A stretch of 64,000 nt of DNA from Bilabrum cf. latius (Eukaryota): assembly GCA_965178125.1 (NCBI GenBank), contig OZ237735.1, forward strand, positions 248,001 to 312,000. Reading direction: 5' to 3'. This document shows, in pieces, positions 1,476-64,000 of the stretch; the stretch's first letter is position 1; each line of letters begins with the position of its first letter. Position numbers and translations under genes: made by a program. Under the pieces are notes generated by a model. That model was not told the DNA's origin. It did not search any database and was given only the letters and a program-made list of their open reading frames with translations.

Positions 1476-2828
1476 TCACAGCCGGCCCGCCTCCCGCAAA
1501 GCCTCCAGGTTGGCCTCCCCTCCCCACAGCGACAGGAACGCCTCCCTCTCCCCGTCGCTGCTCTCCTGCTCCCCGCGCTGCCGTTCCCTGCCGGACCCGC
1601 CCACCATCGACCGCTCCCGCCCCCTCCTGCCTCCCCTGGCCGCCGCCTCGATGGCTCGCATGGCCCCCCACAGGGGGGCGGGGTGCGACCCCGGGCCCCC
1701 CAGCAGCCGGTCCAGCTCGGCACGCACCGCCGCTGGCAGCAGAGCGTCCGCCATGCCGCCGCCGCTGCCGATGTCCCCCGCCCGCCCGCCCGCGGCACTG
1801 CCGCCGGAAGCACCACCGGTGCTCGGCAGCCTCGAGGAGGAGGAGGAGGAGGGGGCTGGTGCTGCTGCCAGCGGTGCTGCTGCTCGTGCTGCTGCTGCGT
1901 CGTCGGTCCCTGCCGCCGCCGACAGCAGCGCCTCCCCGCCCCCATCGCTCTCCCGCGCCGACGACCCCGCCCGCTCTCCTCTTCCTCCCGCTCCATCGCC
2001 ACCGTTCCCATCTCCAACCCCCGCCCAGAACAGGGGCAGCTGCGGGAGAGGCATGGCGGCGCCTCCTTCCCCGCCGGCGGGGGAGGCGGCAGAGGTGGAC
2101 TCCTCGCCGCCGCCGCCGCTGCCGCCGCCGAAGCATCTCCCGCCACCAGCGGCCGCGAGACGCTCGGGGGCCAGCGGCTCGATCTCGGACCCGAGCACCG
2201 CGTCGGCGAGGCCGACCCGCAGGGCGGCGCCGGCGTCCAGCGGGGGGGAGCCCAGCAGGAGCCTGCGGGCGGCCTGCTCGCCCACCAGGGACACCAGCCG
2301 CTCCGTGCCGCCCCAGCCCGTGCTCACGCCCATCTTGCGCTGCAGGAACCGGACCTTGGCCCCCGGGCTCAGCACCCGCAGGTGCGTGGACGCCACCAGC
2401 TCCGCGCCCCCGCCCAGCGCGTGCCCCTCCACGAGCGACACCGTGGGGATGCACAGCCCGCGCAGCCGGTCCAGCGCCCGCGTCATCACCCGGCTCATCG
2501 CGTCGCCCACCTCCGGGGTCGGGCCCACCGAGGAAAGGTCGGCGCCCGAGCAGAACGTGCCGTCGGCGCCGCGGAGCACGACGGCCCGCGGGTGCAGCCG
2601 GGTGACGGCGCCCAGGTCCGTGGCAGAGGCGCACTCTGCCAGGGCATCGATGATGCCATCCAGCTCGCACATCATGGATCCGCTGATGGCGTTCTTCCGG
2701 CGCGGGTTGCACAGGCAAAGCACAACTGCAACCGACGGCAGCTGCTTGCGGGGTCCGGCGAGCCACGCGACCCTGTACCCGCGCACGCTGCCCCCTGCGA
2801 GAGACCGCAGCACGCTGCGATGCGCCAT
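1476..2828 (-). CDS. Enoyl-CoA hydratase/isomerase family protein (ECHDC1/ethylmalonyl-CoA decarboxylase-like), with low-complexity insertion
   Basis: Motifs NPRRKNAISGSMM, FCSGADL, EGHALGGGAEL, KMGVSTGWGG. 450 aa, TGA stop. Confidence 0.85.
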   Translation of the reverse strand: MAHRSVLRSLAGGSVRGYRVAWLAGPRKQLPSVAVVLCLCNPRRKNAISGSMMCELDGIIDALAECASATDLGAVTRLHPRAVVLRGADGTFCSGADLSSVGPTPEVGDAMSRVMTRALDRLRGLCIPTVSLVEGHALGGGAELVASTHLRVLSPGAKVRFLQRKMGVSTGWGGTERLVSLVGEQAARRLLLGSPPLDAGAALRVGLADAVLGSEIEPLAPERLAAAGGGRCFGGGSGGGGEESTSAASPAGGEGGAAMPLPQLPLFWAGVGDGNGGDGAGGRGERAGSSARESDGGGEALLSAAAGTDDAAAARAAAPLAAAPAPSSSSSSRLPSTGGASGGSAAGGRAGDIGSGGGMADALLPAAVRAELDRLLGGPGSHPAPLWGAMRAIEAAARGGRRGRERSMVGGSGRERQRGEQESSDGEREAFLSLWGGEANLEALREAGRL

Positions 2829-2984
2829 CGGGGGGCGGGAACGGGAGGTACGGGGTTAAACCTCGATTTTGGGCTGGGTGGCCCGCGAGGTTGCGGAGGT
2901 TGGGAAAAAGCGGCGTCTACGACCGGTGCTGCCTGTGATTGCGCGTGGTGGTCTGGATGCGGTGCGCAGGCCCGGTCACCACAA

Positions 2985-3057
2985 GCCCTCTTAGCTCAGT
3001 CGGTAGAGCGGACGACTCTTAATCGTCAGGCCGCGGGATCGAGACCCGCAGGGGGTG
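2985..3057 (+). tRNA. tRNA-Lys, anticodon CTT
   Basis: 73-nt cloverleaf: acceptor GCCCTCT/AGGGGGT, D-stem GCTC/GAGC, anticodon stem GACGA/TCGTC with CTT at 3018-3020, T-stem GCGGG/CCCGC. A T-run follows. Confidence 0.92.
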
Positions 3058-3062
3058 ACTTC

Positions 3063-3115
3063 TCTTTTTTCTTTTTTTCCGTCTGTCGCTTTTTTATTTA
3101 TTTTTTTATTTTTTG
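3063..3115 (+). terminator. Oligo-T Pol III terminator tract after tRNA-Lys
   Basis: Several T6-T7 runs directly 3' of the tRNA in otherwise GC-rich DNA. Confidence 0.6.
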
Positions 3116-3258: not shown

Positions 3259-4878
3259 ATGGAACCACCACTGCCAGTGGCAGCAGCACTCGCCACCGAT
3301 GGCGCGGCCGCGCCTCTGGCCCGCGGCACCCTGGTGGTCTGGGACTTTGACCACTCGTACGTGAACGAGAACAGTGACATCTTTGTGTTCGAGAAGGACG
3401 CCCCGGGCCTCTTGGCGCGTGGCAGGAAGCTCGCGGCGAGCCACCAGTTCACCGACCTGATCGCCGCGGTCCTGCGAGCCGCGGCCGTTCGCGAGGGCGT
3501 CTCGGTGGAAGCCCTAAAGGCCCGGCAGGAAGAGATCCCCACCTTTCCGGAGTGCGTCCAGCTCGCCAAGGAGCTGCGAGCGGCCGGCTGCCGGCAGCTC
3601 GTGCTCAGCGACGCAAACACCTGCTTCATCGACTGGATCACCGAGGCGCACGGCACCCGCGGCTGCTTTCAGGACGTCATCACCAACCCTGCCGAGCTCT
3701 GCAGCACAGACGCGATCGATCCGGCCGCGCGAGCCGCCGACGCGGAGCTCTTCGCGCCCGGCGGCGGCGGCGTTCCGGCGGCCGAGGCGGCCGAGGCGGC
3801 GGCAGCCGCATCCTCCTCCTGCTGCCGCTAGCAGGAGGCGCCACAAAAGGCCGCCACCTTCGTCAAGCTGCAGCGGTACCAGCCCGCCGCCCGCCCGCAC
3901 CGCTGCACCGTGTGCCCGGTCAACCTGTGCAAGGGCCGCGCCCTGGCCGCGTGGCTCCTCCGGGGCCGCTGGCTGGGGGGAGCCACCGGCGGAGAGGAGG
4001 AGGAGCGGAGGAAGGAGGAGGAGGAGGAAACCAGCAGCCGCGCTAGTGCCCGTGCGGCTGCCGAGCCCGCACCCGCGGGTGCGGCAGGGGCACCGGCACC
4101 GGCGGTAGCAGGCGCAAAGACTGGCACTCCCCCCGGCACCATAGTCTCCGGCTCCTCAGGCACCAGCAGCTGGGACGGGGGCTCCGACCCCTAGTTCCCC
4201 TGCCCCTCGTCCGAGTGGTCTTCCTGGAGGCTCCCCCCTGGCAACGACGGCGCCAGGGGGCCGGGGCCGGCCGGGTCCCAGGCCGGGACACCAGCTGAAG
4301 GGGGTCCTGCCGGGGGAGGGGAGGAGGCGGCTGCTGCTCCTGCTGCTGCTGCTCCTGATGCTGCTGCTCCTGCCGCCGCCGCGGGACGTAAATGCGCCCC
4401 CTCTCCCCCTTCCCTGCCGACCACCATCGTGTACATCGGGGACGGGGGCAACGACGTGTGCCCCGTGGCGAGACTCCGAGGGGGGGGCGCCGACCTCGTG
4501 TGCGCGAGGGAGGGCTACAGGCTCGCCTCTAGGCTGCAGGGACTCCATGAGGGCGCGCCTGTGCCGCACCGCCGCGCCGAGGCCGAGGCCGAGGCCGAGG
4601 CGGAGCCAGCGGCTGACGGCGGCAAGCCCACGGAGGCCGCGGGGGCCGGGGCGGGGTCTGCCGCGCCGGGCAGCGGCCAGCCGCCCGCTGCTGGCCCCGC
4701 CCTCGCCAAAGAAGGGATCAGCTCGAAGGAGAGCGTCTGGGAGACGCCCGTCCGGGCCCAGGTGGCCACCTGGAAGGACGGGGCCCAGCTGAGGGAGGCC
4801 GTCCGTGGCTTCCTCGAGGCCAAGGGGGTGCGACTGCCGGTGGTGGCGGCGGGGGGCACCACGCCGGGGCCCGGCTGA
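3259..4878 (+). CDS. PHOSPHO1/PHOSPHO2-like HAD phosphatase, ~539 aa with 2 in-frame TAG
   Basis: ORFs 3259, 3910 and 4429 share one frame, separated only by TAG (3829, 4192). Family motifs are spread over all three pieces: WDFDHS, LSDANTCFI, HRCTVCPVNLCKG, VYIGDGGNDVCP. TGA stop. Confidence 0.88.
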
Positions 4879-5154: not shown

Positions 5155-5560
5155 CCCTCTCCCTTCCACTCCTTCTCCCGCTCCCCCCCGTCCCCTCTCC
5201 CTTCCACTCCTTCTCCCACTCCCCCCCGTCCCCTCTCCCTTCCACTCCTTCTCCCACTCCCCCCCGTCCCCTCTCCCTTCCACTCCTTCTCCCACTCCCC
5301 CCCGTCCCCTCTCCCTTCCACTCCTTCTCCCACTCCCACACAACCCCCCGCTCCCTTTATCAGCCGAGGTCCCCTCCACCACACCCTCAGCCACACAACC
5401 CCCCGCCCCCCCTTCTATCAGCCGAGGTCCCTCCACCACACCCTCGGCCACACAACCCCCCGCCCCCTTTATCAGCCGAGGTCCCCTCCACCACACCCTC
5501 AGCCACACAACCCCCCGCCCCCCCCTTCTATCAGCCGAGGTCCCTCCACCACACCCTCGG
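5155..5560. repeat. Compound C-rich minisatellite: 38-bp unit x ~5 (5155-5335), then ~57-bp unit x ~4 (5336-5560)
   Basis: Units approximately CCCTCTCCCTTCCACTCCTTCTCCCACTCCCCCCCGT and TATCAGCCGAGGTCCCTCCACCACACCCTCAGCCACACAACCCCCCGCCCCCCTT. Confidence 0.85.
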
Positions 5561-6559
5561 CCCCAGGTGCACGCCCGGAGCCACCACCGAGTTCCTCACC
5601 AGCCCCGCGGGGTGCAGCCGCCCCGCGACACCCAACCCCCCCTTGCCGAACCCCCCGCCACCGTCACCGCCGCCGCCGCCACTGCCCACCCTCGCCGCGT
5701 CCAGGCCCCGCTCCACCGCCCCGATGGAGCCCCTCTGCAGCTCCCGCCTGGCCCCCTCCGGGCCCCCCCTCAGCAGGCCCCCCGCCAGCCGCGCCGCCAT
5801 GCCGAGGGGCGCCATGCCGGACCGATCGAAAGAGAGGATGGAAGGAGACAAAGCGGACGAAGACCCCTCGCCCCAGCCAGGTGTTCCCTCCACCGCGCGG
5901 AGGGCCTCCAGCTCCAGCATGCGGCACTGCGGCTCGGTGAGCGGCTGCGCCAGCTGCCTCGACAGGATCTGCCTCGCCTTGGAGCACACGATGCGCTCGT
6001 CGAAGGGGCGCAGCTTGGGCCCGGAGAAGGTCTCTTCCAGGAGCATGTGCTCCCCGCGCACGCGCACCACGAGGGCGGCGTGGTCAAACTCGGAGCCGGA
6101 GACGGCTTTCTGCGCCAGGATCCACGCCGCGCCCAGCGGCAGGTACAGCGCGGGATCCCGGTTGAACACGACAATGTCGCCCGGCCGCACTCCCTCCGAC
6201 TGCAAGTCGTCTGCGGAAAACAGCAGCGGGATGATTGGGTGGAGGAGGGGGGTAGGGCTGGCTGCGTGTCAAGGGGGGGCGGTGGCTCTGACGGCTAGCT
6301 GGTGGCGAGCTCTTCTTGCTGCGCGCGCGGGCTGGAAACCACCAACACGCGTGTGCTGCTGCCTCCGGCCCAAACCTAGATGTAACGTTTTCTTAGCTAG
6401 CGCCCGCACAATTGGCGGCTGCCTCGACTCACCCGCCGAGCCAGGCGTGAAGCGCCTTCGCCTGCCCTGCGGCAGCACGGACCGCGATCGCATGACGCTG
6501 TACGAGTACCATCCCACGGCGGCGGTAGCAGCCGCGGCGCCGAGCTTTAGCTGCAGCAT
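5531..6559 (-). CDS. Hypothetical protein with permuted papain-like/NlpC-P60 (YiiX-like) N-terminal motifs; exons 6559-6433 and 6210-5531
   Basis: VRPGDIVVFNR...SEFDHAALVV...LLEETFSGPKLRPFDERI. GTGAGT..TTCCGCAG intron joins in phase. No clear catalytic Cys motif, and the 3' end (TGA 5531) lies in the minisatellite, so it is uncertain. Confidence 0.55.
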
Positions 6560-6649
6560 GGTGTTTTTATCTGCCGGGCAGACCGCGCCGTTCTCAGCCG
6601 CCCAAACGGCCAATAGACGCAGCGGTTGTTGCGTCCTCCGATAGGCATC

Positions 6650-7275: not shown

Positions 7276-7421
7276 GCATCGCACTGCATCGCTTCATTCG
7301 CACCTGCACCCGGCAGGCCCGCCCACCCTGCCGCTGCTCCAGTGGATGCAACGCACTGCATCGCTTCATTCGCACCTGCACCCGGCAGGCCCGTCCACCC
7401 TGCCGCTGCTCCAGTGGATGC
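7276..7421. repeat. ~71-bp tandem duplication including the stop codon region of the glycosidase gene
   Basis: CGCACTGCATCGCTTCATTCGCACCTGCACCCGGCAGGCCCG(C/T)CCACCCTGCCGCTGCTCCAGTGGATGCA twice. Confidence 0.85.
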
Positions 7422-8904
7422 AGGGCGTCCCCGGCCCCGCGCCCCCAGACTCGAGAGCCAAGCAGGCCTTGGTGCCCGACGCGAATGACCGAGACAGGCT
7501 CGTCTCCCAAGACGTCACAACAGCTCCATCGCCAGCCGCAACAGTCCCGCACGCGGAGGCAGCGCCTTTCGCGATGACGGCACCTGCACTGGAAGCTCCG
7601 AGGCGCGAGCGGTGACGACGTGCGACCAGCGCCGCATCCGCCAGAGTGGCGTTCCGAGCAGCCAACCTCCCCACCCGGCCCCCCGGGCACCGCAGCTCAG
7701 CCCTGATCGCCGCAGTCGCGCCAGACAAGGGAGCTCCCAAGGGAAGGTCGTACTGGGGGTACCAGTGGTCCCACCCACTCGTCACGCTCCAGCCGGGGGT
7801 GCAGCCAAAGTAGGAGTAAGGGCCGGCACCCATGAGGAATGCGGCCAGCGAGGCGTTGAACGCGTGCGGATTCTCATCGTTCGGCTCCCCGTGTGCCTCT
7901 GCTACGTGAGGGTACGAGTAGTTGGTGGACTGCTGCTGCAGGTCGCGGATGTCGGCCAACAAATCAGCCCTGTCGAAGTCTTTGTCCCCCCATCGCTCGT
8001 ACATGCGGCCGTTCACCTGAGATACGTCAGCAACACACGCATACCACAACGGGCGAAACAGGGAGTGGGCAGAACAACACGACTATGCGCAGGCTTTGCG
8101 GTGCTTTTCTGTTTCTCACGCCCGGGTTGTTGGCGTTGTTTAGGATGACAACGCCGTCTGCGAAGATCTCCTGCGCGCCCCTCTCGATCAGATCGTGGCC
8201 CTCGTCCCAGGCCTTTCGGCGGGCTGGAGAGAGGTTGCGGACGCTGGAGCCGTAGTAGTTCCCGCGGTCCAAAAACGCGCCATCGATCGCTCCCGACTGT
8301 TTGGCCTGGGCCAGGGTGTCCAGCCAGTACTCGCGGCAGCTCTCCTTCGAGTGATCGAACACGTACTGCCCCACTACTTTCACGTAATCGCCATTGTCGT
8401 CCTTGAGCCAGTTCTCCGGGTGGGCCTCCATAGTCTTGTGCAGGTTGTACATGTCCCAATCCATGATGGAATTGAGGTAGAAGAGCACCTTGGCGGTCGG
8501 GATGGCCTGCTTGATCTGCTTGGCTTCCCTTACTATTTTGGCCTCGGCATCCGTGCCAGCCGGGGCGACATGCGAGGACATGCCCTTTTCAATTGTTATC
8601 TGCGGCAAGGAGAGCACAGTCCTCGTTGCTATTGGTTGGTGTTGCCTCTCGACGACGTTTCACAATAGCTGTCGACTTTGTATCGTGGTGCGGTTAGCGA
8701 GCGCGCGAGACTGATTTGCAACAGTCTCACTAACGGAAATCGGTTCCCAATGAACGAGAGCTACGCTGGTGAGAATGGGCCAGATGCATTCGCGGAATGC
8801 CAGAACAGCGGGACCGTATCCCACGAGAAAGACGGGTAGTTCGACGGTACCGCAGAACCGAAGGCAGAATACGCTGCAAGCACGCAGATAGCGGTACTAT
8901 GCAT
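7366..8904 (-). CDS. Secreted glycoside hydrolase, GHL15/GH168-like; exons 8904-8731, 8599-8120, 8016-7366; ~434 aa, 1 in-frame TAG
   Basis: Signal-like MHSTAICVLAAYSAFGSA, then YPSFSWDTVPLFWH..FSPA*LSFIGNRFPL|ITIEKG, AKQIK..PTAKVLFYLNS, IDGAFLD, LAAFLMGAGPYSYFG, WYPQYDLPLGAPL. Two GTGAG..CAG introns join in phase. TAG at 8761-8763, TGA stop. Confidence 0.75.
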
Positions 8905-9117: not shown

Positions 9118-12100
9118 ATGTCTGTGCCTTCGCTGACTGCGGCGGTCCTGGAGGAGGCCACGGGCGAGACGCGCCTGGGCAGCTTACGAGACGCAGAGAT
9201 TATTTTCACCAACGTTCAAACGCTGGCCGGCGGCGGCCTCGATTCGTGCACCTCGCTTTCGAGCCTCACGCGTGAGTTCTCTTAGCATTCTTCGGACCGA
9301 GCGCCCCATTCCTAGCCGCGCGTACGAGCGGTGCCCCTCGGCGCGCCGCCCCGACCTTTTTTTGGGATCGCGAGGACTAGCTAGCTCGAGCTCCTGGTAG
9401 CAGCTACGCAGGTCCCGCCGCCCGCCGGATTCGTTCTTTCGTACAAGCACAGCACACAGCCATGCGCGCACGTCCTCGTCGAACCGCCTCCCGTGTCCGT
9501 GCGCGCGCACCTCTCTTTCGCTCGCAGTCATCGACACCGGGCTCCAGTCGCCGCTGTGCCGAGGCCCCGAGCTGTCCGGGGTGTCCGCGACGCTCGCCAG
9601 GCTCTGCATCACGGAGCAAACGTCGCTCAAGCGGCTCGGGTCGCTCCGGCTGCCGGCCCTGCGAGACCTCTTGCTGCACTCGAACGGCCTGGAATCGCTC
9701 GAGGGCCTCGAGGGCTGCCCGCGCATCCAGCGCCTGTGGGTGTGGGGCAACCGGCTGCGCAGCCTCTCGGGCCTGCACGCGCAAGCAGACCTGCGAGAGC
9801 TCTGGGCGCAGGACAACCGCCTCGAGCGCGTGGCCGGGGTGGAGCACCTCGTGTCCCTGCAGGTCCTGGACGTCGCGGGGAACCCCGTGGCGAACCTTCG
9901 CGACGTGCAGAAGCTCGCGCACCTGCCCCGGCTCCGCTCCGTCTCCTTCTCGGACCCCCACTTCGGGTCCTGCCCCGTCGTGAGGGCGGCGGGCTACCGG
10001 CAGTTCGTGCTCGCGTCGCTGCCGGCTCTCACGCACCTGGACGGGCGGACGGTCGGCCCCCAGGACAGGGACGGCGCAGACGAGGCCTTCTTGCGGCAGG
10101 CGGAGGAGTTCGAGGCGGCCAGGGAACAGAGGGAGGGGGCCTTCGACGAGGTGCTGGACCGCCTCGCGGCGCGGGCGGGCTCCGCGGCGGACGCGGAGGC
10201 GGCGGCGGGGGAGGAGCTGGCCGCGCTGGTGCGGGGCCTCGAGGGGACGGTGCGCAGGGGCAGGGCGGCGGTGGAGGCGGAGGGCGCGCGGGTGGTGCGC
10301 GTGCAGGCCGAGGCGAGGCGCGAGCTGGAGCGGAGCGCGGGGGCCATCGAGGGCATGAGGGCGGACTGGGTGCGGAGGGCCGAGGCGGCGGGGGAACAAG
10401 CCCTGGCCGGGGAGAGGGAGGCGCTGGGGTGGTGCGAGGTGGAGGACGCGTGCCTGCGGGCGTTCGAGAGGGCCTTTGTCTCCTCCGCGGAGGAGGGGGA
10501 GGGGGAGGAGGACGAGGAGCAGGGTGGTGCAGGGGCACGAGCAGACGGGGGGCAGGGCGGGGCGGCGCTCTCGAGGCAGGGCAGGAAGAGGGGGGGAGGG
10601 AGCAGCAAGAAGGCAGCGGGCGGTGGAGAGGGAGAGGGCGAGGGCGGCTCTTCCTCGCGGGCGGGTGCCGCTGCTGCTGCTCCTGCTACTGACGCCGCGA
10701 GAGACCGAAGCAGGGGTGAAGGACAAGACGGGGAAGGCAGCTACTCCGAAGACGAAGGGTGGGCAGAGGACGATGAAGATGAAGATGAGGAACAGGGCAG
10801 AGGACGAGGAGGAGCCGTGCCCGGTGGGGGCGGCCGGTTCGTCCTCCCGTCGCTTCCGCTGCTCGTGGCACAGCTGCCCCCGCACGCGCCCGACGCCAAG
10901 GCCGTCCTCGCAGAGGCAAGGACGGCCTGCGCGGCCGGCGCAGCGGACCTGCTGCGGTGCGGAAGGTGCCACTCGCCCGTGGCAGAGGCCGCGCTCGAGG
11001 CGGTGGCATCAGCGCGGGCGGCGGCCGAGGAGGACGAGGGCGTGCGACCAGTGGAGGTGCCGGCCGCTGCGTTTGGGAGTATGAGTGGGCCGGGGGGAGG
11101 GGCGGGATGGGCGGCGCCGCGGTTGTGGGTCCGCGGGTCGGCGGGGTTGGAGCGCGTGCCGCGAGAGGGCTGGCTCGTGGGGGCGCCGGCAGCGGTGGCG
11201 TCAGTGCTCAGGATCGGAGCCGGTGGCGGAGCTGGCGGCGCCTTGCGGGGAGGAGAACCGGCGGGCGATCGCGGCAAGGGCTGGTCGGGAGGGGCCGTCT
11301 TTGCGCCCACTCTAGAGGTGGCGCTAGAGGCGGCGCGGGAGGCCGGGGCTGGCCTCCGCTGCGCGAGCAGGCCAAGCCCTGCTGCTGCCACCGCGGTAGC
11401 CGCCGGCCGTGTGCAGAGCGCGCTCGCAGCGTGTGCCTGCAGGTGCGAGGTCCTGGGCCTGCTCGCTGATGGCGGTGCAGCAGCAGAGTCGCCGATTGCG
11501 CAGCCGTCATCGACCGGAGCACCGGGGCTTCCGGCAGCGCCTGGTTTTTCTTCGTCCCCGGCCGGTGCTGCGGAGGGGCGGCGAGGGCCGGGTGCCGCGC
11601 TCGCTGGCGGGCTGCGGTGGCTGCAGTCGTCCGGCGGCGGCAACGCTGCCCTGGTGCCGCTGGACGGAACAGGCTCGCACGGCATCGCGTTCCGGGGCGC
11701 TACGACAGACACCAGTAGGTCGGCTGCGTCGTTGCTGCTGCTGCTGCTGCCGGACGCGATCGCCACCCTCGCGGTCAGGCTGCCGGGCCCCGCGGCGCCC
11801 GAGGTGCCTCGGCTGGCCGACATGCGCGCGCGAGCAGAGCAGGCGGCCGGTGCGCCGCTGCTGCTGCCGCCGCCGTCGTCGTCGATTTCGACCCAGGGGT
11901 CGAACTCTCGGGCGGAGGGTGACGAGACCGGCATTCCTGCTTCGTTCGCGGGCATGTTTGCAGAGGCGGAGCTGGCCGCCATGCAGCAGGCATGCAGCCG
12001 GCGGGAGTGCTCGGACGGGGGGGCTGCGGTGTGCGAGGCGGCGGAGGCCGCGGTGGCCGCCACGCGGAGGGACTACGCCATCGCGGTGCTGCACGGGGTG

Positions 12101-12313
12101 GCGGCCCCGCTCGCGCAGTCGATCGGCAAGGCCAGGGCGAGGGCGGGCAGGTCAAGGGCGGAGGTGGAGCGGGCCATGGAGGCCGCAACAGCAGAGCGGG
12201 CCCTGCAGCAAGCGCTGGTGACGGCGCTGCAGGTGGAGGACGCGCCAGTGTCGCGGGTGCTGCCGGCGCGGCTTGCTCCCGTGGGGCTCGGAGGTACAGC
12301 GGAGGAGCACTGA
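9118..12313 (+). CDS. Leucine-rich repeat protein resembling the LRRC9 N-terminal region; exons 9118-9271 and 9528-12313; ~979 aa
   Basis: SDS22-type LRRs (LRDLLLHSNGLESLEGL, LRELWAQDNRLERVAGV), LRR cap FSDPHFGSCPV..YRQFVLASLPALTHLDG, then coiled-coil. GTGAGT..TCGCAG intron in phase, TGA stop. Confidence 0.75.
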
Positions 12314-12459: not shown

Positions 12460-15400
12460 TCACTCAGAATCCGAGAAGCCGCCAGGGCTAGTCGAGCGAG
12501 AGCTGGATTTGCTCGGCGCTGCCACACCCGTGCTGCCAGGCTGCCTGGCCTTCACCGCCTGGAACCTTGCCATGATCTGCTATTGGAACGACGACCCTCT
12601 CGATGCCTTGGGTACCCGCTTGCGCCTTTTCGTACCCTAGTCTGCTGCGGGTGCGGCCTCCGCCGCCTCGGCCTTGCGCCTTGCGTCCAGCGCAGCTTCT
12701 GCCTCGGACAGCTGCGACCCAAGTCGGAGCTGCCGAGCTCGCTTGCGGAGCAGAGACAGGCACGAGCTGTGCGCGCGGAGTAAGGCAGCGCATAGCCGGG
12801 CAGCGCGTTCCGAGGCCGCGTGGATGTCTCCAGGTGCCGCCGCCCCGCCCGACCCACTGCTAGACGACGCGGCCCCGTGCCCGCCGCCCTGCACGAGGTG
12901 CATGCACCGGTCGAGGCCGGTCTGCATCATGCGGTACTGCTGCTCGGCACTATGCCGCACCCGATCAAGGGCGCCCACACCTTCTCTGAACGCTGCGATG
13001 GCGCCGTCGGGAGTTTCGATCCCGGTACCGGGAGGCATGACGCAGACAGCCGCTGCCTCGTCCTCGCCCGGCGCATCGTCCCGCGCGGCCTTCACGCTGG
13101 CCTCAAGCCAGCGCAAAGGATCGTCGGCACGGCTGCTGCCAGTTGCTGACCGCAGGCGCGCAGTCCCCGCCAAGTCTTCGAACGCCTCGTGGCCGGCGCG
13201 CACGCTCGACTCGACGGCCATGAGCGTCGTGAGCACCGAGCTGCCCCACTCACTTTCGTCGGGGATGGCTCGAACCGCGGCTTCCACAGGACTGGCGTCC
13301 CCTTCCGGCAGGAGCGCATCTGCCAACGCCCCTGCGCGAGCGACAGCCCCGTGCAGATCCTCGTCACCGTCCAGCTGCAGGGTATGCGAGACGTACCGCG
13401 AAAGCTCGCCGAAGGAGGATGCACTCGTGGACCGTTCCAGCGTCTCGGCCACGGACTGCACGGCAGCCACGCCCGTGCGAACGCAGCTAAGCATGGCAAG
13501 CATCTCGATTGAACGCTGCATGCGGCTGAGCAGCCGACTGAACCGGCCGGCGCCGAGCGACACGGCACCCAGGATCAGAGTCCGCACCGGTGGGTTGACT
13601 CCTGCGAGCAGCGCTCCGGCAGCTCCCTTCGATCCTCCCTCGGTGGAGCCCGCAACTCGCAGGACGGCCTCGGTGAGTGCGTCGGCGAGGGCCGCGGGCG
13701 GCAGGGCTCGTCGGGCGGCCTCGATGGAGCCGATCGCCAGCGCGCGGACCTCTTCCGGGGTCTTGCGCGAGCGGGACACCACCTGCACCTGGTCGGCTCC
13801 CGAGGAGCTCCCACCGCCCGTGGACGCGCCGGCGCCGGCGACACCTTCGCGCGATTTGCCAAAACCTGCGGACAGCCTCATCAGCTCCAAGAAGCGCCCG
13901 GTGACCAGGTCGCGCACGAAGTGGCTCAGGAACGGGTCAAGTTTCCTCCCGGGCTTCGCGGCCGCACTCGACGGCGGCCCGCCCGTGCCCGCACCAGAAC
14001 TCGGCCCTCCCCGCGCGGCGCTCGCATCGACGAATTCTGGCACCTCGAAGTGCTTGCAGGCCCCGACCGCCGCCCTCGCCTTGGTCTTGGCCGCCTTGGC
14101 GCCCAGCTCTGCATCCATCCCGCCTCGGTTGGACATGATATGCCGCTCGATTGACCCGACGGCGTGCTGCAGCTGCGACTTGGGCGTAGCGGGGGCAGTC
14201 GGGGCGCCGCGGCTGCGAGCCGCTTTCCCCGCCTGCCTCTGCACTTCATCCAGCAGCGACGGAGCCTTCCTACGGGGTCCTGCTGAGGGACCCGAGGGAG
14301 GTCTTCCGGGCCTGCCTGGTCTTCCGGGTCTGCCAGGTCTGCCCGGCCTTCCCGGCCTGCCAGGGACTCTGGGTCTGCCGGGCCTTGGTTGGGAAGGAGT
14401 TGCCCCTGCAGCCGGGCCACTGGGTCGTGGACCTGGTCGTGGCCTGGGTCTTGGTCGAGCCAATGTTGACGCTAGTGCAGGAGCTGGTGCAGGTGCTGGT
14501 GCAGGTGCAGGTGCTGGTGCAGGTGCAGGTGCAGGTGCAGGAGCTGGTGCAGGTGCAGGTGTCGCACCTCGATTATCGTCTCCAGTGCTCAGACCCCCGA
14601 GGCCAGATACACTGCTCGTGTAGCCCCCCAATGAGCCCTGTGGGTCGCTTGCCCAATCTGCAGCAGAACCGGGCCCTGCAACCACCCCTGCATCAGGCAT
14701 GTCGGGCCCAGGGGGCGCGGTGGCCCCATAGAAAGCTGGTGCCGGCGGATGGGCAGGGGCAGGGGCTGTTGCTGGTGCTGGTGCATGTCCCTCTGTGCCT
14801 GTGAATGATGCAGTTGCTGGTGCTGGTGCTGGTGCTGGTGCTGGTGCTGGTGCTGGTGCTGGTGCTGGTGCTGGTGCAGTCGCTGGTGCTGGTGTCGCAC
14901 CTCGATTATAGTCTCCAGTGCTCAGACCCCCGAGGCCAGATACACTGCTCGTATAGCCTCCCAATGAGCCCTGTGGGTCGCTTGCCCAACCTGCAGCAGA
15001 ACCGGGCCCAGCAACCACCCCTGCATCGGGCATATCGGGTCCAGGGGGCCCACGACTAGAACCATCCAACTGTGACGAGCCTGGTCCGGCTTGGCCGTCA
15101 GCTCCGTGCTCGGCGGCAAAGCCGGTTGCAGGCAAGGCGCTGCCCCACGGAGGAGGGACGGCTGACCCGCCCTGCCCCTAGAGCGCGGGTACGCCCCAAC
15201 CACCTCGATCACTAGGAGGAGCGCGTCGCACGATGGAGAGGAATGTCAGCGCGTCGCTCTCCTGCGTGCGCACGAGCGCTGGGACCTGCCTCTCCTCTGG
15301 AGATGGCATCGTCACCGACTCCTGCTTTCCAGCCTTACGTTCTAGATCGACGGCGATAATATCACTGGTCTGCACGATCACGTATTCGTTCGGGTTGCTC

Positions 15401-22998: not shown

Positions 22999-23854
22999 TC
23001 GCGCCAGCCACTCGCTTGGATCAATTCAAGACACCACTGCGATGTACAACTTAGAAAGCTGGAAGCTCAAGCACGGCTTCTACGCCTTCAAAAGCCGGGT
23101 GGCAAATGCTGGAGGCTGCGGTGCGAAATCTTGGCGGCTTGGCGCACGATTTGGCTTACCAGGAAGGTAGAAACTGGTCGGGTGGCACTAAGTTTGATGT
23201 GATCTTAGAGCACGCTTCGTCCTCAGGGTCTGGTTGTGAATCGAGCACTGCAAGCAGTCTGCTTATTGGTCGGGGGTGGCGTGCACTGCACGTCCGCGCA
23301 AAAAAATTTCAACCTAGGTCTAGATCTATCTCCCGCACCAGCTGCAACATCTTGCCGCGACTACGAGCGTTGAACTGATCTCGCTGGATTCATTGTTTGT
23401 GCCGCTGGTCTCGTTGGCAGCTGCCGTCTGCTTGCTTGGAAGCATCGAGATCGTGAGACCCACGCAAAAGCCTGCAGGGCCGCGCTGCACTTAACACAGA
23501 GTCAACAGAGCATACATTGAGTGCCAGACTTCACTTTAGCAAACCAATGGAGGACTGCCTAGGCGTCTGAATCGCGGAAAGTTCATCCGCAGCAACGGCG
23601 ATGGCGGTCTCTGTGGATCTTGTCGATGATTCCAGTGACGCTAGCAGCAGCGGCAGCATCAATAGCGAGTCGGACAGCACAAGCTCGCGGTGCAAGTCAA
23701 ATAAAGCGGTGACGGAGCTTGGTGGTGACCGAGAGGCCGTGGCAGTCGCGGGACAGCCAGTCCGCAGCAGCAGTGCCGCTGAGCACCCTGCCGCCAGTCA
23801 CTCTGTTGGTCCACCAAAGAGTCGGCGATAAGCATATCCAGCGCAGAGGCAAAA

Positions 23855-30130: not shown

Positions 30131-30165
<35 letters not shown>

Positions 30166-35649: not shown

Positions 35650-35808
35650 CGCTACGTCTTATTCTTGTCGAGTGCGACTTTGATGAAGACAAAATGTCCC
35701 GTGCCGCAAAACAGGAAGTGGAATCCCGACCACAGCTCAATCAATTCTGGTGTGACATTTGTGAATTCCGAGACTACCAGAACACACTGAATTTGTCTAT
35801 TTGCAAAC

Positions 35809-36969: not shown

Positions 36970-37210
36970 TGCGTGATTGCAGAGTCCGGTGCTGGTCGTG
37001 CGCCTGGGGATACCTAGCCGCACTCCGTGACAATACGGAATCACTGCTATCGTCATCTTGATTGCTGCACCGGGCGCGACAGGGTTGCTTCCGTCGAAAA
37101 TGAGATTTGGTTTGCGGTAGCAGTACCGTGTACTTTCAAACTCGCGATCCTGCTAGTGCCATCTAGCGGTGATCAGAAAGAGCTGCTCAGACCTCGAACT
37201 CATAGAGAGA

Positions 37211-58200: not shown

Positions 58201-60873
58201 AGGTCTGACCCCTTGTCGATCGAGCCCATGGCCGGATACCGTCCCATCGGAGAGTCTGTGGAGTCAGAATCAGCCGAAACAGCTGACGGCCCGTCATTCG
58301 GTGCGAGCTCTGGGACTGACCCTGACCAGCTTTTCGAGATGCTGGCAGAGTCAGCTGAGCGAGTGGATCCTGCCGAGCTCGTTGCGGACGCAGAGCGCAA
58401 CACCCCCGGCGGGGGAGGGACGGGCGTAGAGGGCAAGCAGAACCTACTTTCGGATGATCTAGGAAGCCGTAAGTATCTTGATATGAGCTTCAACGGGGCG
58501 GTGTGGATGAAGATGGGCTTCGCGGATGGCTAGTCGCGCGCCGTGACCAAGGTCTTGATTCGATCTGCGAACGACTGCGAGGAAAGAGACCCGAAGCACG
58601 TTAAGATATTCGGGCGGAATGTGCAGTCGGGCAGTGAGTGGAAGCTGCTGGCGGAGGACTAGGACGTGTTCTTCTCGGCGAGGCACAGCATTTACACCAT
58701 CGACATCCCAGAGGACAAGGTGTGCGAGTGCACTGAAGTAAAGCTGCAGGTGCTTGCCACGCGTAGAGAGTGCGGCATGATGCAGGTGAACATGATTGGT
58801 ATGCACGCTGCGAGTGCAGGCAGCTACGATGCGTACAAGAAAGCCGTGGCAGGCGACTCAAGCGATGCAGGCGCCCCTTTTGAAGGGTACGGACTCCCTG
58901 TGGCAGGAAACCGCGTCACGATTCGCTGGGTGCAGGAAGATGGAGACGACAGCGGCGGCGATTCCCGAAAGCTGCGTGTGGTCGTCGTTCCCATGCTTGA
59001 GCCGGATGCGATCAAAGCGCACATCAACGGGCGATTCCAGGGCGAGCTTGAGCAGCAGGCAACGGATCGTAGGCAGGCAACGTCCCGCATTCAGAGGGAG
59101 GGCATCCGATCGGACCTTATGCACGTCTTTGAAGGCGGCGGGACGGGAGGCAGCGCTGGTACTCGTAGCGCTTCTGAGCACGCGTTGGCACGGACTGCAT
59201 ACAGAGAGCTCTTTGAGTTCCTGTAGACCGGGTTTGCAGGCACGGAGGCTGACGAGGAGCTGGTGGACTTGCTGGACGACGCGAGCCGGCGGAAGGGCTG
59301 GAACGCGGGCAAACTGTTTTAGTGCTCGTGGCAGGAGGTGCGGGATGCGTCGCAGCTGAAAGAATCACAGTTCCCCGCGCTGGCTGCTGTGCTGAATGAG
59401 GGCAATGCGGCCGAGGTGCCTGGATAGGAAGGTGGCAGGCAGCGAGTCGAAGCTCGGTTGATGCTGGTGCAGCAAGCAAACCAGAGCGTCAGGAAAGCAT
59501 TACCGTGGATCGACACCACCCGCGCTGGCGCAGACCAGGGCTCGGCAGCTTCGCGACTTGCGAGCATCGCTCACTTGATCGCGCTGGTCCTGAAGAAGCC
59601 GCTATGGGACCGTTGCTTGGAGAAGACCCAGAGCAACTCGAGGCAGTTCAACTTCACCATCGATCGCATTGCTCCGACCACCATGCTGGGCGGGGGCAGG
59701 CAGGACTCGGAAGGCAGGCACACAGTGTTCTCTCAGGCATTCCGGGCCATGTTCCGCAAGAAACCGAGCGAGCTGCGCGGCGGCCGCGGCCACCGCATGT
59801 TCGAGGTTAGCTTCCGGAACGAGGGCGCTATCGACGCGGGTGGCCCGTACCGAGAGGCCTACACGCTGCTCGCTGAGGACCTGATGAGCGACCGAATGAC
59901 TCTCATGTTGGATGCATCCAGGGCGCGACAAGCGGCGGGGACAGCGCAAGCATCCGGCGGAGCTGCTAGCGATGCGTCCGGGCCGCCGCCGCTGTTGAGG
60001 CGGCAGTCGACGGGGGCAGAAGCCGAGCAGTCGAACCCGCGCGTGGCCAACCCCGGGGCGAGCTCCGAGATCGAGGGCCGGCTGTTCAGCTTCCTGGGTC
60101 GGTACATGGGCATGGTGATCCGCCAGCAGATCTACGTGCCCATGCAGTGCGCGTCGATTTTCTGGAAGGGTCTGACGGGGGCGCGCTGCGACGAGCTCGA
60201 CCTGCAGCGGAGCGACTACGAGCAGTGGAGGCGCATCGATCAGGTACGCAGGGACGCGGGGCGACTCCCCGAGGAGGACTTCCGCAGGGAGCACCCGGAT
60301 TTGTGCTTTGAGGTACCCGCATCCGACGGGGCCATGGTGCAGCTGGTTCCCAAGGGAAGGGAGAGGCAGGTCACGAGGGGCAACGCGCACCGCTGGGCGG
60401 ATCTCGCGCTTCAGTACCGCCTGGAGCAGGAGCAGAAGGAGGCCACGGCGCATGTGCGCGGCGGGCTGGCCACCATCGTGCCGGTGCACCTGCTGCCTCT
60501 CTTCAGCTGGAGGCAGGCCAGGCGACTAGTGTGCGGGGAGGACCACATCGACATCGCTGCGCTCCGACAGAACACGAGGTACGAAGGGTACGACAGGGAC
60601 AGCCCCGTGATCCAGCGTTTCTGGTCGGCGATGGAGGCCATGCCTGATTCCCAGCGGAGGGCCTTTATCCGCTTTGCGTGGGGTAGATCGACGCTGCCGT
60701 CGGTGGAGGGCAGGTGGTCCGAACCCTTCAAGATCACGAGGCGGTCGGGTGGGGGGCTCCCGCACGCGCACACGTGTTTCTTCCAGATCGAGCTGCCGCA
60801 GTACGAGACCGACGAGGAGATGCGGTCAAAGCTAGCCTGGGCGTGCGCCGAGACGTCCATGCTGGAGGGATGA
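37211..60873 (+). CDS. Giant HECT E3 ubiquitin ligase with multiple SPRY, CUB-like and MIB/HERC2 domains; exons 37211-37805 and 37895-60873; ~7,857 aa, ~49 in-frame TAG
   Basis: About 32 listed ORFs from 37855 to 59458 share frame +1 and all but the last end in TAG. Gaps contain only TAG. HECT motifs F.NEGAIDAGGPYRE, FIRFAWGRSTLP, LPHAHTCFFQIELPQY. MIB/HERC2 VVRGPTWQSGNADGG. CUB-like ESPHPY..FRSDGS..EWG. SPRY GKWYFEV. Ends TGA TGA. An 89-nt GTGAG..CGCAG intron (37806-37894) joins the frames. Confidence 0.9.
57130..58260 (+). repeat. Tandem duplication of a SPRY-domain coding unit, period 591 bp
   Basis: WSSGDVVQCYIDCDTRQAFWRLN.STDRIEWPGTPVPG and VRLGGPRSDPLSIEPMAGYRPIGESV occur twice, with near-identical DNA in those blocks. 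Confidence 0.9.
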
Positions 60874-61088
60874 TGAGCTGAGGGTCTCCGGGCAGCACTC
60901 GCGGGTGCGGCTGGATGGCTTTCTCGCACGCGTGCGTTGACTGTGGGACGCGCACAAGTGAAGGCTTTTGCGAGGGGCCTTCGGGGTGGCATTCAATAGT
61001 GTGACTATTTGACTACTTCAATTTGTTTCAGGCCAACGCACTCATTCCGGCGGCAAGCAACCCGCCCACAACGATCACTGCAACCACA

Positions 61089-61849
61089 TCAAAGCATTCC
61101 AAACTTGGCAAGCTTGGGCGCGATCACGGCCCGGCAGTAGCCGTGCGTCTTGCCGTTCTTGTCCCAGAATTTCTGATGGTAATCCTCCGCCGCGTAAAAC
61201 GGCTTTGCATCCATCAGCTTGGTCTTGAGCCGGCCCCCGAGCGCCTTGTCCCATTCGCCCATGAGTGCCTGGACCTCCTTCTTCTGCTCCTCCGAGTGGG
61301 CCCAGATGCTCCCCATGTACTGCGGGCCCCTGTCAGCGCCCTGCCCACCGCCATCGGTGGGGTCGTGCGCCTTGTAGAAGACTTCCAGCAGACCGCGGAG
61401 GCCGCCGGCCACCTTCTTGGGGTCGAAGTGGACGTGCACGACCTCCACGTGCCCCGTGTCACGAGAGCAGACTGTCTCGTACTTGGCGTCTGCGGCTGAG
61501 CCACCCATGTATCTGCGTGAGCCGGGAAACACACTGGTGCAGCCTTCTTGCAATGGCCGTGCGAAGCAGGCGTCCGATGCGGATCGAAAACACTGTCTCA
61601 CCCAGACGTGGCATCCAAAACACCGTTGGTTTTGGACATGATAGCTTCTAAGCACCAGAAGCAACCACCACCAAGAGTTACCTGCGTTGTTGGTAACCTT
61701 GGTAGGTACGGCCGCTAAAGTTTGGCAAGACAAGATCGATGTGCAACTGCAGCCGGCCAAGGCATACTTCTCACTCTCTGGGATCCATCCTCTTCAGTCG
61801 CAGGGAGTACTTCAACTTCTTTCGCAGTAGAAGAAGCGGCAGAAGCCAT
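61089..61849 (-). CDS. msrA: Peptide methionine sulfoxide reductase A; exons 61849-61775, 61681-61602, 61512-61089; ~192 aa
   Basis: VTLGGGCFWCLE, GVLDATSG|YMGG, YETVCSRDTGHVEVV, HDPT...QGADRGPQY, FYAAEDYHQ. Two GTGAG..GCAG introns in phase, TGA stop. Confidence 0.95.
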
Positions 61850-62153
61850 ATTACCCATAAACGCGCTTGACGAGAAACACAGTGCCGGTGCAGCGTACGT
61901 GCAAGCGAAAGCCAGAGCAGACGTTAGGCTTGTACGTCTTTGGCTGGACGAACGGATGCGGAGACTAGATCTCCGAAGCGCTCGGCAAGACCTGCTAACT
62001 GCGCGAAATGAAATGATTTACCCCTCTGCAGCAATTTGAAGTGGAAAGTACGCCACGTCGGCTCGGCCAGAGTCGCGATCGTGCAGTGCACAATATTAAT
62101 ATTCCGAATCTTCACATAAAGGATTCTCAAAACTGCTAGTGTTCACTCATTGC

Positions 62154-63089
62154 ATGATGATTTCGGCGCGAATCCCTCGATTATTTGGAAGAATTTAGTC
62201 GATGCTACCGGTATAGCTGCGCTGTGGTCGAAATAACTTTTCTCATAGTCGATTCGCTTCACAAAATTCAGACGGCTTGGTTTGGGTGCGATTGAAGGGA
62301 CTTCCTAAAGCGAGTGATTCCGTAGATGTTGCCTAGATGATAGAGTCTACGGGAACACCGGTCCACGACATAGTTGTGGGGACTCGCGGTACCGTGATCG
62401 GCCCGTGGTTCGTAAAAGTCCCGGCTAACAGGGCAACAAGAGTTGGGGACCTCGGAACGAGCGCAACAGGCACGCGGTCGCTGCAGCCTGAGATTGTCCC
62501 AAATGTTCATTCTGTTCGAAACAAGCAGATAGTTCCTGTGGGAACTCCTGGCATTGTGATCAGCGGGTTCCACCCCTCCGCGACCGTCGAGGACGTGCAT
62601 GCCTTCCTGGCGCCGCACGTGTACCCAGCAACCGGAAAATCTAGCGATTCGAACCTCATGTCCCAGCTCCCGCCAGTAGTGCATGAGTCAGACCCGGTGG
62701 CGCTGCTGGACGATCGCGCCAAAGAGCGGGGCACCCCGGGGCCTTGGCTTCGAAACATGCTAGCCCGACCAGACCGCGCCAGGACAAGGCCCCTGCCCCG
62801 CGACCGCACCAACTTCTCGAGGGTCTCAATCCCCTTTGACCACCCCGTGGACGACCCCATCGAGGTGTGTGTGCACACCCTGCAGCCCGCGGGACCCTCC
62901 TGGGCCAATGCGCTGGCGACTGTGCTCTGCCGCTCACAGGCTGACGCAGTCAAGCTGCAGCAGCTCAAGCACGGGACCTTCATTCCGGCAACCAACGCGC
63001 ACGTGGAGCAGTCCGCCTCTGTCTCTCTGCAGTACAACTCTCACATTGGAAGCTCGTACAGGACCGCGTTTGTGAGACTGCTCCCATGA
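62154..63089 (+). CDS. Hypothetical protein with RRM-like segments and a possible mitochondrial presequence, ~311 aa, 3 in-frame TAG
   Basis: Reading through TAG extends ORF 62337 to MMISARIPRLFGRI*SMLPV*LRCGR...WVRLKGLPKASDSVDVA*MIES. A second RRM-like start is GIVISGFHPSATVEDVHAFL. TGA stop. Confidence 0.55.
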
Positions 63090-63307
63090 CGGTGCAAGCG
63101 GGGCATGCGGTTGGGACTGCGTTACAGAGCACCAGTGAGTTCGAACGCCTGTTCATGGCAAGAGTACGATAGCGATGGTGGAAATAACTAAATTGGTGGT
63201 CTACGGGCACAGGCAGGCCCACAATGAGCATCGCAAGACCACCGGACGGATGACCGTGGGCCAGGAACTCCTCCTAGCCAGCTCGCCCGTGTGGGCACGA
63301 GCGGCTC

Positions 63308-64000
63308 TCACCACGGCTCGTCCGCAGCGAGGCACACCCCGAGGCACGCGAGGCCCTCCCCCTGGATCACGTTATCGGCGGGGGTCACCTGCACGAGGCC
63401 GGCGGTGGCGTTCACCCTGGGCAGTTCCCACTGCTGGTCACCTGACCCTCCGGGGAAGTCGTGGCACGAGTACAGCAGCGGCGTGTTCCCAGTGGAGGCC
63501 TTCTTGCCCCCGGCGTCGAGACACAGCCCGGTCTGCTTGTGCACGATGTGGCCGGTCAGCCCCTGGATCTCCCACTGCTGGGAGGGCTCCGTGGAGTCGC
63601 ACGCGGCGCTCGACAGCACGCCCTGGCCCTCTGGCCCTGCCGAGGCCTTGGACCTCGTCTGGTTGCTCGCGCTCCCGCTCAAACATAGCTTCGAGGCGCG
63701 GAAGCCGCCCTCCCGCTGCTTCCCCTCCCCAGCCCCGGCGGTGCTCTCGTCAGGACCCCCCGAGGGAGGTGTCTGCACGGCCTGCAGGGTGCCGTCCGTG
63801 TTGAGCAGCCAGCGAGTGGCGAGGTTGGCCGTCCCGTGGTGCTGGCAGTAGGCCGTGAAGGGCTTGCCCACGACCCCGTGCCCGCCACCTTTGCCCACCT
63901 GCTGCTTGAGCAGCGCGACGTCTGCGGGGTCCGCGGCAGAGCGCACGTGGCCGGGGCAGTGGTGCAGGGGCACGGCGGCGAGGAGCTCCGTGGCCGGCAC
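63308..64000 (-). CDS. 3' end of a protein with ricin-B (beta-trefoil, QxW) lectin repeats, truncated by window end
   Basis: SKLCLS, ACDSTEPSQQW, TGLCLDA, LLYSCH....GDQQW. TGA at 63308. Confidence 0.7.
   Translation of the reverse strand: MPATELLAAVPLHHCPGHVRSAADPADVALLKQQVGKGGGHGVVGKPFTAYCQHHGTANLATRWLLNTDGTLQAVQTPPSGGPDESTAGAGEGKQREGGFRASKLCLSGSASNQTRSKASAGPEGQGVLSSAACDSTEPSQQWEIQGLTGHIVHKQTGLCLDAGGKKASTGNTPLLYSCHDFPGGSGDQQWELPRVNATAGLVQVTPADNVIQGEGLACLGVCLAADEPW

Follow-up and report, generated by a model that had tools for sequence, protein, structure and literature searches.

Background

Nuclear genetic codes in which UAG and UAA have come to be read differently are rare, and the parts of the published reports drawn on here name the fornicate Iotanema, a rhizarian, the green alga Scotinosphaera, some phyllopharyngean ciliates and one ciliate with two amino acids (PMC5304391, PMC11687900, PMC8271138). 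Iotanema spirale (Fornicata), known from its transcriptome, translates UAG as glutamine (Gln), terminates at UAA and UGA, and has the substitution T32G within the GTS motif of the release factor eRF1 (Panek et al. 2017, PMC5304391). Here, we analyzed a stretch of 64,000 nucleotides of DNA deposited under the name Bilabrum cf. latius (the window; NCBI GenBank assembly GCA_965178125.1, contig OZ237735.1, positions 248,001 to 312,000 of the forward strand), in which UAG occurs throughout long reading frames, UAA is missing from them, and all traced genes end in UGA.

Other described systems differ in the amino acid and in the stop codons retained. Phyllopharyngean ciliates include codes with UAG as Gln and with UAG as leucine (Leu), prefer UAA as stop codon, use UGA least (in 1.7–13.1% of genes) and have genomes of 27–54% GC (2024, PMC11687900). 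In Scotinosphaera, UAG encodes serine (Ser) and both TAA and TGA terminate (Li et al. 2021, PMC8271138). The rhizarian exLh translates UAG as Leu, ends 56 of 71 transcripts in UAA and 15 in UGA, and has few UAG codons in its highly expressed genes (PMC5304391). Codes in which UAA and UAG (together UAR) both encode Gln are found in many ciliates, in the Dasycladales, Trentepohliales and Cladophorales, and in hexamitin diplomonads (PMC5304391, PMC8271138).

A first-pass annotation of the window, made from the letters alone, had proposed that UAG and UAA are decoupled in this organism and that UAA is either a rare stop or a nearly unused codon. By combining reading frame statistics, RNA-derived contigs and the sequences of relatives in public data, we arrive at a reading to which we give a probability of about 0.75, namely that UAG is a sense codon (most likely for Gln), UGA is a working stop codon, and UAA is left undecoded as a rare termination codon.

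Results

UAG within genes

Reading frames were compared under three sets of stop codons: TGA alone, TGA plus TAA, and the standard stops. With TGA as the sole stop, the window contains frames of 7,688, 3,522 and 2,524 codons, which do not change in length when TAA is added as a stop; when TAG is counted as a stop, the longest frame is 1,145 codons. The genes and frames concerned are:

37211 to 60873, plus strand: giant gene for a HECT-type E3 ubiquitin ligase, ~7,858 codons, with exon 1 to 37804, a GT..AG intron at 37805–37893 (89 nt) and exon 2 at 37894–60873; 49 in-frame TAG, 0 TAA; ends in TGA TGA
12460 to 23025, minus strand: open frame rich in low-complexity sequence, 3,521 codons, no Pfam family; 19 in-frame TAG, 0 TAA; ends in TGA
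24492 to 32063, minus strand: open frame with a weak alpha/beta-hydrolase match, 2,523 codons; 8 in-frame TAG, 0 TAA; ends in TGA

The three giant frames contain 45, 19 and 8 in-frame TAG codons, respectively, and because their lengths are equal under TGA alone and under TGA plus TAA, the absence of in-frame TAA from them is not circular. All gene models together, some of which are stop-to-stop frames that may contain a few codons of 5′ untranslated region, amount to 18,293 codons with 88 TAG (~0.5% of codons), no TAA and 14 TGA, each of which is terminal. Within the HECT frame, TAG is present as late as the last 7% (residue 7206 of 7,687 of the open reading frame, ORF). UAG is an ordinary sense codon in these genes.

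TAG codons are mostly concentrated in the giant, low-complexity genes. Five shorter and better conserved genes (1476–2855, 5531–6268, 35809–36969, 61089–61793 and 63308–64000; 1,431 codons) contain none, compared with 6.9 expected at the window-wide rate (P = 0.001). UAG may be decoded less efficiently, or it may arise mainly at unconstrained sites.

TAG in RNA-derived contigs

Three further genes are needed to follow the evidence from transcripts:

35809 to 36969, plus strand: phosphomannomutase (PMM) gene, exons 35809–35907, 36176–36286 and 36403–36969, 259 codons, Pfam PMM 3.2e-89; 0 TAG, 0 TAA; ends in GGG TGA
31705 to 33784, plus strand: transcript of a PG-rich repeat protein (PGPGAY motifs), exons 31705–31894, 32098–32769 and 32979–33784; 2 in-frame TAG; stop TGA at 33669–33671
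33814 to 35658, minus strand: frame without a Pfam family, 614 codons; 8 in-frame TAG; TGA followed directly by TAG

Both PMM introns are cut out at their exact GT..AG borders in Logan contigs of the runs X5, X6 and X7, which must therefore derive from spliced RNA; no record labels these runs as RNA, and their RNA nature rests on such spliced contigs. The contigs also lack the two introns of the PG-repeat gene, whose model is based on a spliced contig with GT..AG joints, and the 89-nt HECT intron at 37805–37893. RNA contigs without a single difference to the DNA cover 37894–43999 (13 TAG), 36403–37804, 25065–26766 (3 TAG) and 26816–29063, and contigs from two runs cover the gene at 33814 (34308–35698 and 34308–35654) with 0 differences and 8 TAG. 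The spliced contig of the PG-repeat gene retains its two TAG codons, and at least 26 TAG codons in total lie in RNA-derived contigs, as judged by mapping TAG positions onto them. Since TAG is preserved letter for letter in spliced RNA contigs, splicing, editing and assembly error are excluded.

The HECT gene likely starts at 37211, the earlier ATG at 37100 being likewise open. Contigs of the PMM transcript extend to at least 37275, beyond either start codon, and a single 21-kb RNA contig connects PMM exon 3 to the HECT gene; the PMM and HECT transcription units overlap or read through. A 10-kb part of the window (33000–42999) is present wholly or partly in the runs X1–X11, which come from six studies and carry five coded organism labels as well as “algae metagenome” and “protist metagenome”. 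The organism may often accompany or contaminate other cultures, or different names may have been used for it in the records.

UAA within genes

If TAA were synonymous with TAG, its expected number can be estimated by scaling the 88 TAG codons by the A/G ratios of the other NNR codon pairs in the gene models (CAA/CAG 0.20, GAA/GAG 0.32, AAA/AAG 0.30, TTA/TTG 0.11). This yields 9.8 to 32.9 in-frame TAA codons, with a probability of finding none of 5.7e-5 to 5e-15. As 0 were found in 18,293 codons, UAG and UAA are decoupled, and the central claim of the first-pass annotation is borne out together with two observations behind it, namely that TAA is absent in frame and that other A-ending codons are common (CAA 90, GAA 203 and AAA 81 in the three giant frames). 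In the other frames of the same coding sequences, TAA occurs 25 times (+1) and 58 times (+2). The annotation had also suggested that high GC content could partly account for the scarcity of TAA, which holds for gene ends, where GC content suffices to explain 0/14, and fails for the interior of genes, where 9.8 to 32.9 were expected. UAA does not serve as a codon for an amino acid.

Gene ends

The 14 gene ends traced from the letters all proved to be TGA on the strand of their gene (1476, 4876, 5531, 7366, 12311, 12460, 24492, 33669, 33814, 36967, 60871, 61089, 63087 and 63308), with 0/14 for both TAG and TAA. Besides the six genes given above, these ends belong to:

1476 to 2828, minus strand: enoyl-CoA hydratase/isomerase (ECH) family gene, Pfam ECH_1 6.1e-22; ends in TGA
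3259 to 4878, plus strand: Put_Phosphatase/HAD family gene (PHOSPHO-type phosphatase), 2 in-frame TAG within a low-complexity insert; ends in TGA
5531 to 6562, minus strand: gene without a Pfam family, last exon 5531–6268 with TGA followed directly by TAG; first exon near 6427–6562, kept in a relative
7366 to 8115, minus strand: last exon of a GHL15-family gene, Pfam GHL15 1.8e-8 over the last part of the profile only; ends in TGA
9581 to 12313, plus strand: gene for a leucine-rich-repeat (LRR) protein, Pfam LRR_4 7.4e-12; ends in TGA
61089 to 61793, minus strand: last exon of a methionine sulfoxide reductase A gene, Pfam PMSR 7.9e-36; 0 TAG; ends in TGA
62100 to 63089, plus strand: frame without a Pfam family; 3 TAG, all upstream of the first ATG at 62337, which may be non-coding; ends in TGA
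63308 to 64000, minus strand: 3′ part of a gene with a ricin-B-lectin domain, Pfam Ricin_B_lectin 4.1e-10; 0 TAG; ends in TGA

Several of these ends are fixed by homology. The HECT profile match reaches to 5 residues short of the stop, the ECH ortholog of the relative described below ends at the same ...AGRL-TGA, and the PMM TGA stands at the usual end of the family. UGA is a working stop codon. From 0/14, the 95% upper bound on the share of TAA among stops is 19%, so that a TAA share of up to this size is still compatible with the count, which by itself does not prove that TAA is unused. Gene ends with closely following codons of this kind read TGA TAG at two genes (5528–5533 and 33811–33816), TGA TGA at the HECT gene (60871–60876) and, in the relative, TAA GCC TAA at the end of PMM.

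Relatives and the age of the change

A protein search with PMM exon 3 returned one match of 99% identity and one of 89%, while all others had at most 69% and were scattered over green algae, plants, diatoms, brown algae and cryptophytes. A scan of metagenomes yielded two contigs of the 89% relative, L001 (3,053 nt, 54% GC) and L013 (4,248 nt, 60% GC), with orthologs of PMM, ECH, the LRR gene and the first exon of the gene at 5531, in a gene order unlike that of the window. In ~1,650 codons, this relative has five in-frame TAG codons (one in PMM, one in ECH after the start codon, and three in the LRR frame) and no in-frame TAA. In-frame TAA at conserved positions, which the first-pass annotation had regarded as a sign of the ordinary ciliate-type code, was thus found neither in the window nor in the relative. 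The TAG of the relative's PMM lies three codons before the end of exon 1, directly after DVDGTLT, where the sequence reads ACG TAG GCT AGA AAA and continues with GTAAGC across the exon border.

The three gene ends of the relative are TGA in ECH and LRR and TAA in PMM (1/3 TAA, 0/3 TAG). Its PMM ends in GGG TTG TAA GCC TAA (...EIFGL), identical on L001 and L013, where the window has GGG TGA. Full-length PMM homologs terminate 1 to 3 residues past the equivalent F, and since they end at the equivalent position, the TAA of the relative is read as a true stop. TAA therefore appears to function as a stop in an organism of the same clade, which has the UAG change in common with the window, as judged from one gene of another species. 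Between the two options originally left open for UAA, a rare stop is the better one, and from these sequences UAA is best read as such rather than as an unassigned codon.

In the relative, the neighbors of PMM are the LRR gene and, on the opposite side, ECH together with a tRNA-Lys(TTT) (L001 1468–1541, minus strand). The neighbors of PMM in the window are the gene at 33814 and the HECT gene, and the tRNA-Lys near ECH has the anticodon CTT there.

An exhaustive protein search with HECT residues 6195–7394, with TAG given as X, found five proteins of 84–95% identity (98 to 186 residues), one of 69% and one of 56%. The 84–95% proteins belong to a relative closer to the window than that of L001 and L013. 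Two of the 84–95% fragments end exactly at the window TAG codons 6445 and 7139 (ORF residues), which is expected from a standard-code gene caller if TAG is shared; the reassignment is thus older than the split of at least three taxa. In the PMM tree, the window groups with its two relatives (proteins P0123 and P0124) in a clade with support of 100, whose long stem of 0.98 arises from a poorly resolved backbone (single gene, quick search). The clade falls outside the sampled green algae, plants, stramenopiles, dinoflagellates, fungi and animals, a weak indication from a sampling without fornicates. The metagenome scan with the C-terminal 4,998 residues of HECT gave 10 pattern matches, with no relative among them, and the same query had no match among viral contigs. 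Among prokaryote genome contigs, PMM matched one unrelated contig of an archaeal bin (61% identity).

The amino acid encoded by UAG

Against the 84–95% HECT fragments, window TAG codons align with Gln (Q) at 7171 and 7206 and with Ser (S) at 6410, and the TAG at 6198 probably aligns with glutamate (Glu, E), at a less certain site that adjoins a called start codon. Opposite the ends of three of these fragments, the window reads CAG, CAG and TCG; two Gln codons out of three would be found with P = 0.004 if these ends were arbitrary. Altogether, the seven informative sites against the closer relative read Q four times, S twice and E once, and a one-step substitution model applied to them gives Gln 0.40–0.99, Ser 0.01–0.41 and Glu at most 0.14. 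Gln is also indicated by a TAG in the LRR gene of the 89% relative, which aligns with CAG of the window in the conserved block APLA-x-S(L/I)GKARARAGR in both protein and DNA alignments, and by a TAG opposite Q in the comparison of two recent SPRY repeats within the HECT protein. Further, Gln is the most enriched neighbor of TAG (13 of 154 positions vs a background of 3.8%, P = 0.006).

Several observations limit the case for Gln. Ser and Glu account for three of the seven informative sites, and the outcome of the substitution model varies with the assumed transition bias and strength of selection, with no preference left when selection is omitted. The TAG in PMM exon 1 of the relative aligns with GAG (Glu) in the window, a TAG between two CUB repeats of the HECT protein aligns with E, and the 56%-identical HECT fragment has Glu opposite TAG. 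A naive-Bayes test of TAG context scored all residues below background and picked none, and the sequence around most TAG codons is poorly conserved. The PMM exon 1 column is variable among 183 homologs (A 59, P 45, V 23, I 16, E 12, L 8, K 5, Q 5, other 9), and two further TAG codons in the LRR frame of the relative align with Ala in poorly aligned sequence. A search of the PDB with the domain that contains TAG 6908 and 6951 found one chance-level match (E = 0.64). By our own weighting, Gln is favored at somewhat better than even odds, Ser is an unlikely second choice, and Glu is less probable still. The likeness to Iotanema that the first-pass annotation had drawn is plausible, with Ser and Glu possible too.

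tRNA genes

The window contains two complete tRNA genes and one truncated tRNA-Lys-like fragment:

2985 to 3057, plus strand: tRNA-Lys(CTT), found by ARAGORN, Rfam tRNA 62.6 bits
24024 to 24096, plus strand: tRNA-Tyr(GTA) without intron, found by ARAGORN, Rfam tRNA 65.8 bits

The truncated fragment (639–701, Rfam 34.5 bits) has no T arm and lies within a segmental duplication, in which window positions 1–691 match 2356–3037 with 91% identity over 709 nt and which includes the 5′ half of the ECH gene and part of tRNA-Lys(CTT). The tRNA-Tyr(GTA) has a C1-G72 pair; in most eukaryotes, nuclear tRNA-Tyr genes have an intron. One contig of run X5 has G for A at 24068 in this gene (depth 10.3 of 29.6), a variant that could represent a second gene copy.

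Setting and other gene features

The GC content of the window is 59–71%, and its genes are eukaryotic, closely packed and on both strands; their introns, 89 to 268 nt long, are of the ordinary GT-AG type. We read the window as nuclear DNA from a GC-rich, compact and intron-poor eukaryote. Pfam families were found in 8 of 18 candidate frames (ECH twice, Put_Phosphatase, GHL15, LRR, PMM, PMSR and Ricin_B), and the giant frames contain HECT, SPRY and CUB or alpha/beta-hydrolase matches; eRF1 is not among the genes of the window. Convergent gene pairs lie 143–219 nt apart (12313/12460, 33671/33814, 60873/61089 and 63089/63308).

The HECT protein (~7,860 residues; Pfam E-values: HECT 1e-53, SPRY 1.5e-37, CUB 1.1e-6) comprises many SPRY-like repeats, two CUB-like domains, a discoidin-like domain, a weak MIB_HERC2 match and the C-terminal HECT domain. 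Among proteins of 4,227 to 13,453 residues, no ortholog of similar length was found; the only matches are two animal HERC2 proteins of 25–28% identity. In the Protein Atlas, the LRR protein lies near generic axonemal LRR clusters, with dynein regulatory complex subunit 3 among the nearest, which is a lead only and gives no taxonomic signal. The PG-repeat product is presumably a sperm-tail PG-rich repeat protein; its one-exon frame has no Pfam match at E ≤ 0.01. The organism probably has flagella.

Discussion

In the reading that we favor, UAG is a sense codon, most likely for Gln, UGA terminates translation, and UAA is an undecoded and rare termination codon. From known decoding rules, such a code would involve a tRNA with the anticodon CUA that reads UAG, and an eRF1 that has lost or weakened its recognition of UAG and keeps that of UAA and UGA. 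An anticodon with C34 pairs with G only; with the anticodon UUA, a tRNA would recognize UAA as well as UAG. As C34 pairs only with G, a CUA tRNA would leave UAA untouched, and the two codons would come apart; the same argument, that a CUA-anticodon tRNA reads UAG and not UAA, is made in the part of the report on phyllopharyngean ciliates considered here (PMC11687900). A change that started at UAG would leave UAA to eRF1, and GC pressure would then have made UAA rare as a termination codon.

Some results weigh against this reading. No gene for a tRNA with a CUA anticodon was found in the 64-kb window, searched with ARAGORN and Rfam, nor in the 7.3 kb of the relative (L001 and L013). None of the window genes ends in TAA, termination at UAA being seen only in the relative, where it amounts to one gene of another species; L001 and L013 have the same sequence there and count as one observation. 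Finally, UAG may still end some genes, given a sample of 14 gene ends from the window plus 3 from the relative.

The best-surviving alternative, which we consider unlikely, is that UAA is fully out of use, neither decoded nor terminating, with UGA as the only stop. It would account for the absence of TAA both from the 14 gene ends and from 18,293 in-frame codons. In non-coding DNA of the window, TAA makes up 56 of 214 TAA plus TGA trinucleotides, which predicts ~3.7 TAA stops among 14 genes and a probability of 0.74^14 = 0.015 for none. Stop-codon choice in GC-rich genomes does not track non-coding composition, however, which counts against this alternative, and the observed 0/14 leaves room for up to 19% TAA stops. 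In the relative, whose TAG usage is the same, the PMM gene terminates at TAA, and another TAA follows two codons on. Nor is TAA avoided as the next stop after TGA: the first in-frame standard stop 3′ of the 14 gene ends is TAA in 3, TGA in 3 and TAG in 5, with none within 50 codons in the other 3. We know of no eukaryotic eRF1 that recognizes UGA and not UAA while UAA stays undecoded. Should this unlikely case be true, the nuclear code would have a single stop and one codon without assignment, in a clade of at least three taxa that share in-frame UAG and in which UAG was captured as a sense codon under GC rather than AT pressure.

Somewhat less probable is a context-dependent UAG that is sense within genes and a stop at some gene ends, as in codes of the Condylostoma or Blastocrithidia type. 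The TAG that directly follows TGA in two genes (5531 and 33814) would fit such a code, and the lack of TAG in the 1,431 codons of five shorter conserved genes is a hint of poorer UAG decoding. Yet 0/14 genes end in TAG, the HECT gene has TAG as late as ORF residue 7206 of 7,687, and the relative has TAG in the region of the catalytic motif of PMM. In an ordinary code with both UAR codons as Gln (NCBI table 6 type), TAA would be scarce because of high GC content, in line with a GC3 of 0.65 to 0.9 and a disfavor of A-ending codons in these genes. Even the most A-poor pair (TTA/TTG 0.11) predicts 9.8 in-frame TAA codons, however, and CAA/CAG (0.20) predicts 17.6, compared with the 0 observed; the relative, which is less GC-rich (54–60%), likewise has five TAG and no TAA in frame and has TAA at the end of PMM. 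We regard this code as very improbable. That the in-frame TAG codons are artefacts of pseudogenes, missed introns, RNA editing or assembly errors has nothing in its favor except that most of them lie in poorly conserved, low-complexity sequence, and it can be dismissed given a 23-kb frame with 45 TAG and no TGA or TAA, which is impossible by chance or decay, the exact retention of TAG in RNA contigs without true introns, and the presence of TAG at the same sites in independent relatives.

Codes without a dedicated stop codon (Condylostoma, Blastocrithidia and Amoebophrya ex Karlodinium types) were also considered and ruled out, as TGA is only terminal in 14 gene models and TAA is never in frame.

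With UAG as a sense codon and UAA probably kept as a rare stop, the window organism adds a lineage to the UAG-only codes (NCBI table 15 type if UAG is Gln), a kind of code that is already known. The setting is unusual, as the DNA has 59–71% GC, UGA rather than UAA terminates, and the lineage has no close named relative. No description of a GC-rich eukaryote with a UAG-only reassignment was found in the full-text literature outside subscription journals and supplements. UAG would be expected as a common stop in a GC-rich genome, so that its loss as a stop is not attributable to an AT-driven disappearance of the codon, and the case bears on how stop-codon reassignments start. There are practical consequences as well: standard-code callers cut genes at every TAG and hence a standard-code annotation of this genome would be badly fragmented. 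In the public protein collection, the HECT gene of the clade is present only in pieces (98 to 186 residues) with ends at TAG, and public data already contain, unrecognized, at least three related taxa that share in-frame UAG.

Compared with known systems, as far as the parts of the reports used here describe them, the code can be set beside that of Iotanema, with UAG alone reassigned, UAA undecoded, Gln as the amino acid (favored here) and in-frame UAG recognized by comparison with homologs. Unlike Iotanema, which is known from a transcriptome, the window has 59–71% GC and UGA at 14 of 14 gene ends, and the PMM tree ties the organism to no sampled group. Phyllopharyngean ciliates likewise have UAG alone reassigned and retain UAA as a stop, as is probable here; in contrast to their preference for UAA, UGA is at 14 of 14 ends here, UAA is unseen at gene ends of the window, and the GC content is higher (59–71%). 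Ordinary GT-AG introns and large chromosomal gene arrays also set the window apart from these ciliates, and nothing ciliate-like was seen in it. Scotinosphaera shares with it a UAG-only change in a non-ciliate and, probably, the retention of TAA as a stop, and its Ser is the second-best reading here, whereas the sites in the window favor Gln (four Q vs two S, and the Q of the LRR block) and PMM does not group with green algae in the weak single-gene tree. The rhizarian exLh also has a UAG-only change, and its scarcity of UAG in highly expressed genes may parallel the TAG-free short genes of the window, whereas Leu is never aligned with TAG here and the dominant stop is UGA, not UAA. The UAR codes, finally, resemble the window in that a stop codon has become a probable Gln codon with UGA as a working stop; they have both TAA and TAG in frame, whereas TAA is found in 0 of 18,293 codons here and ends the PMM gene of the relative.

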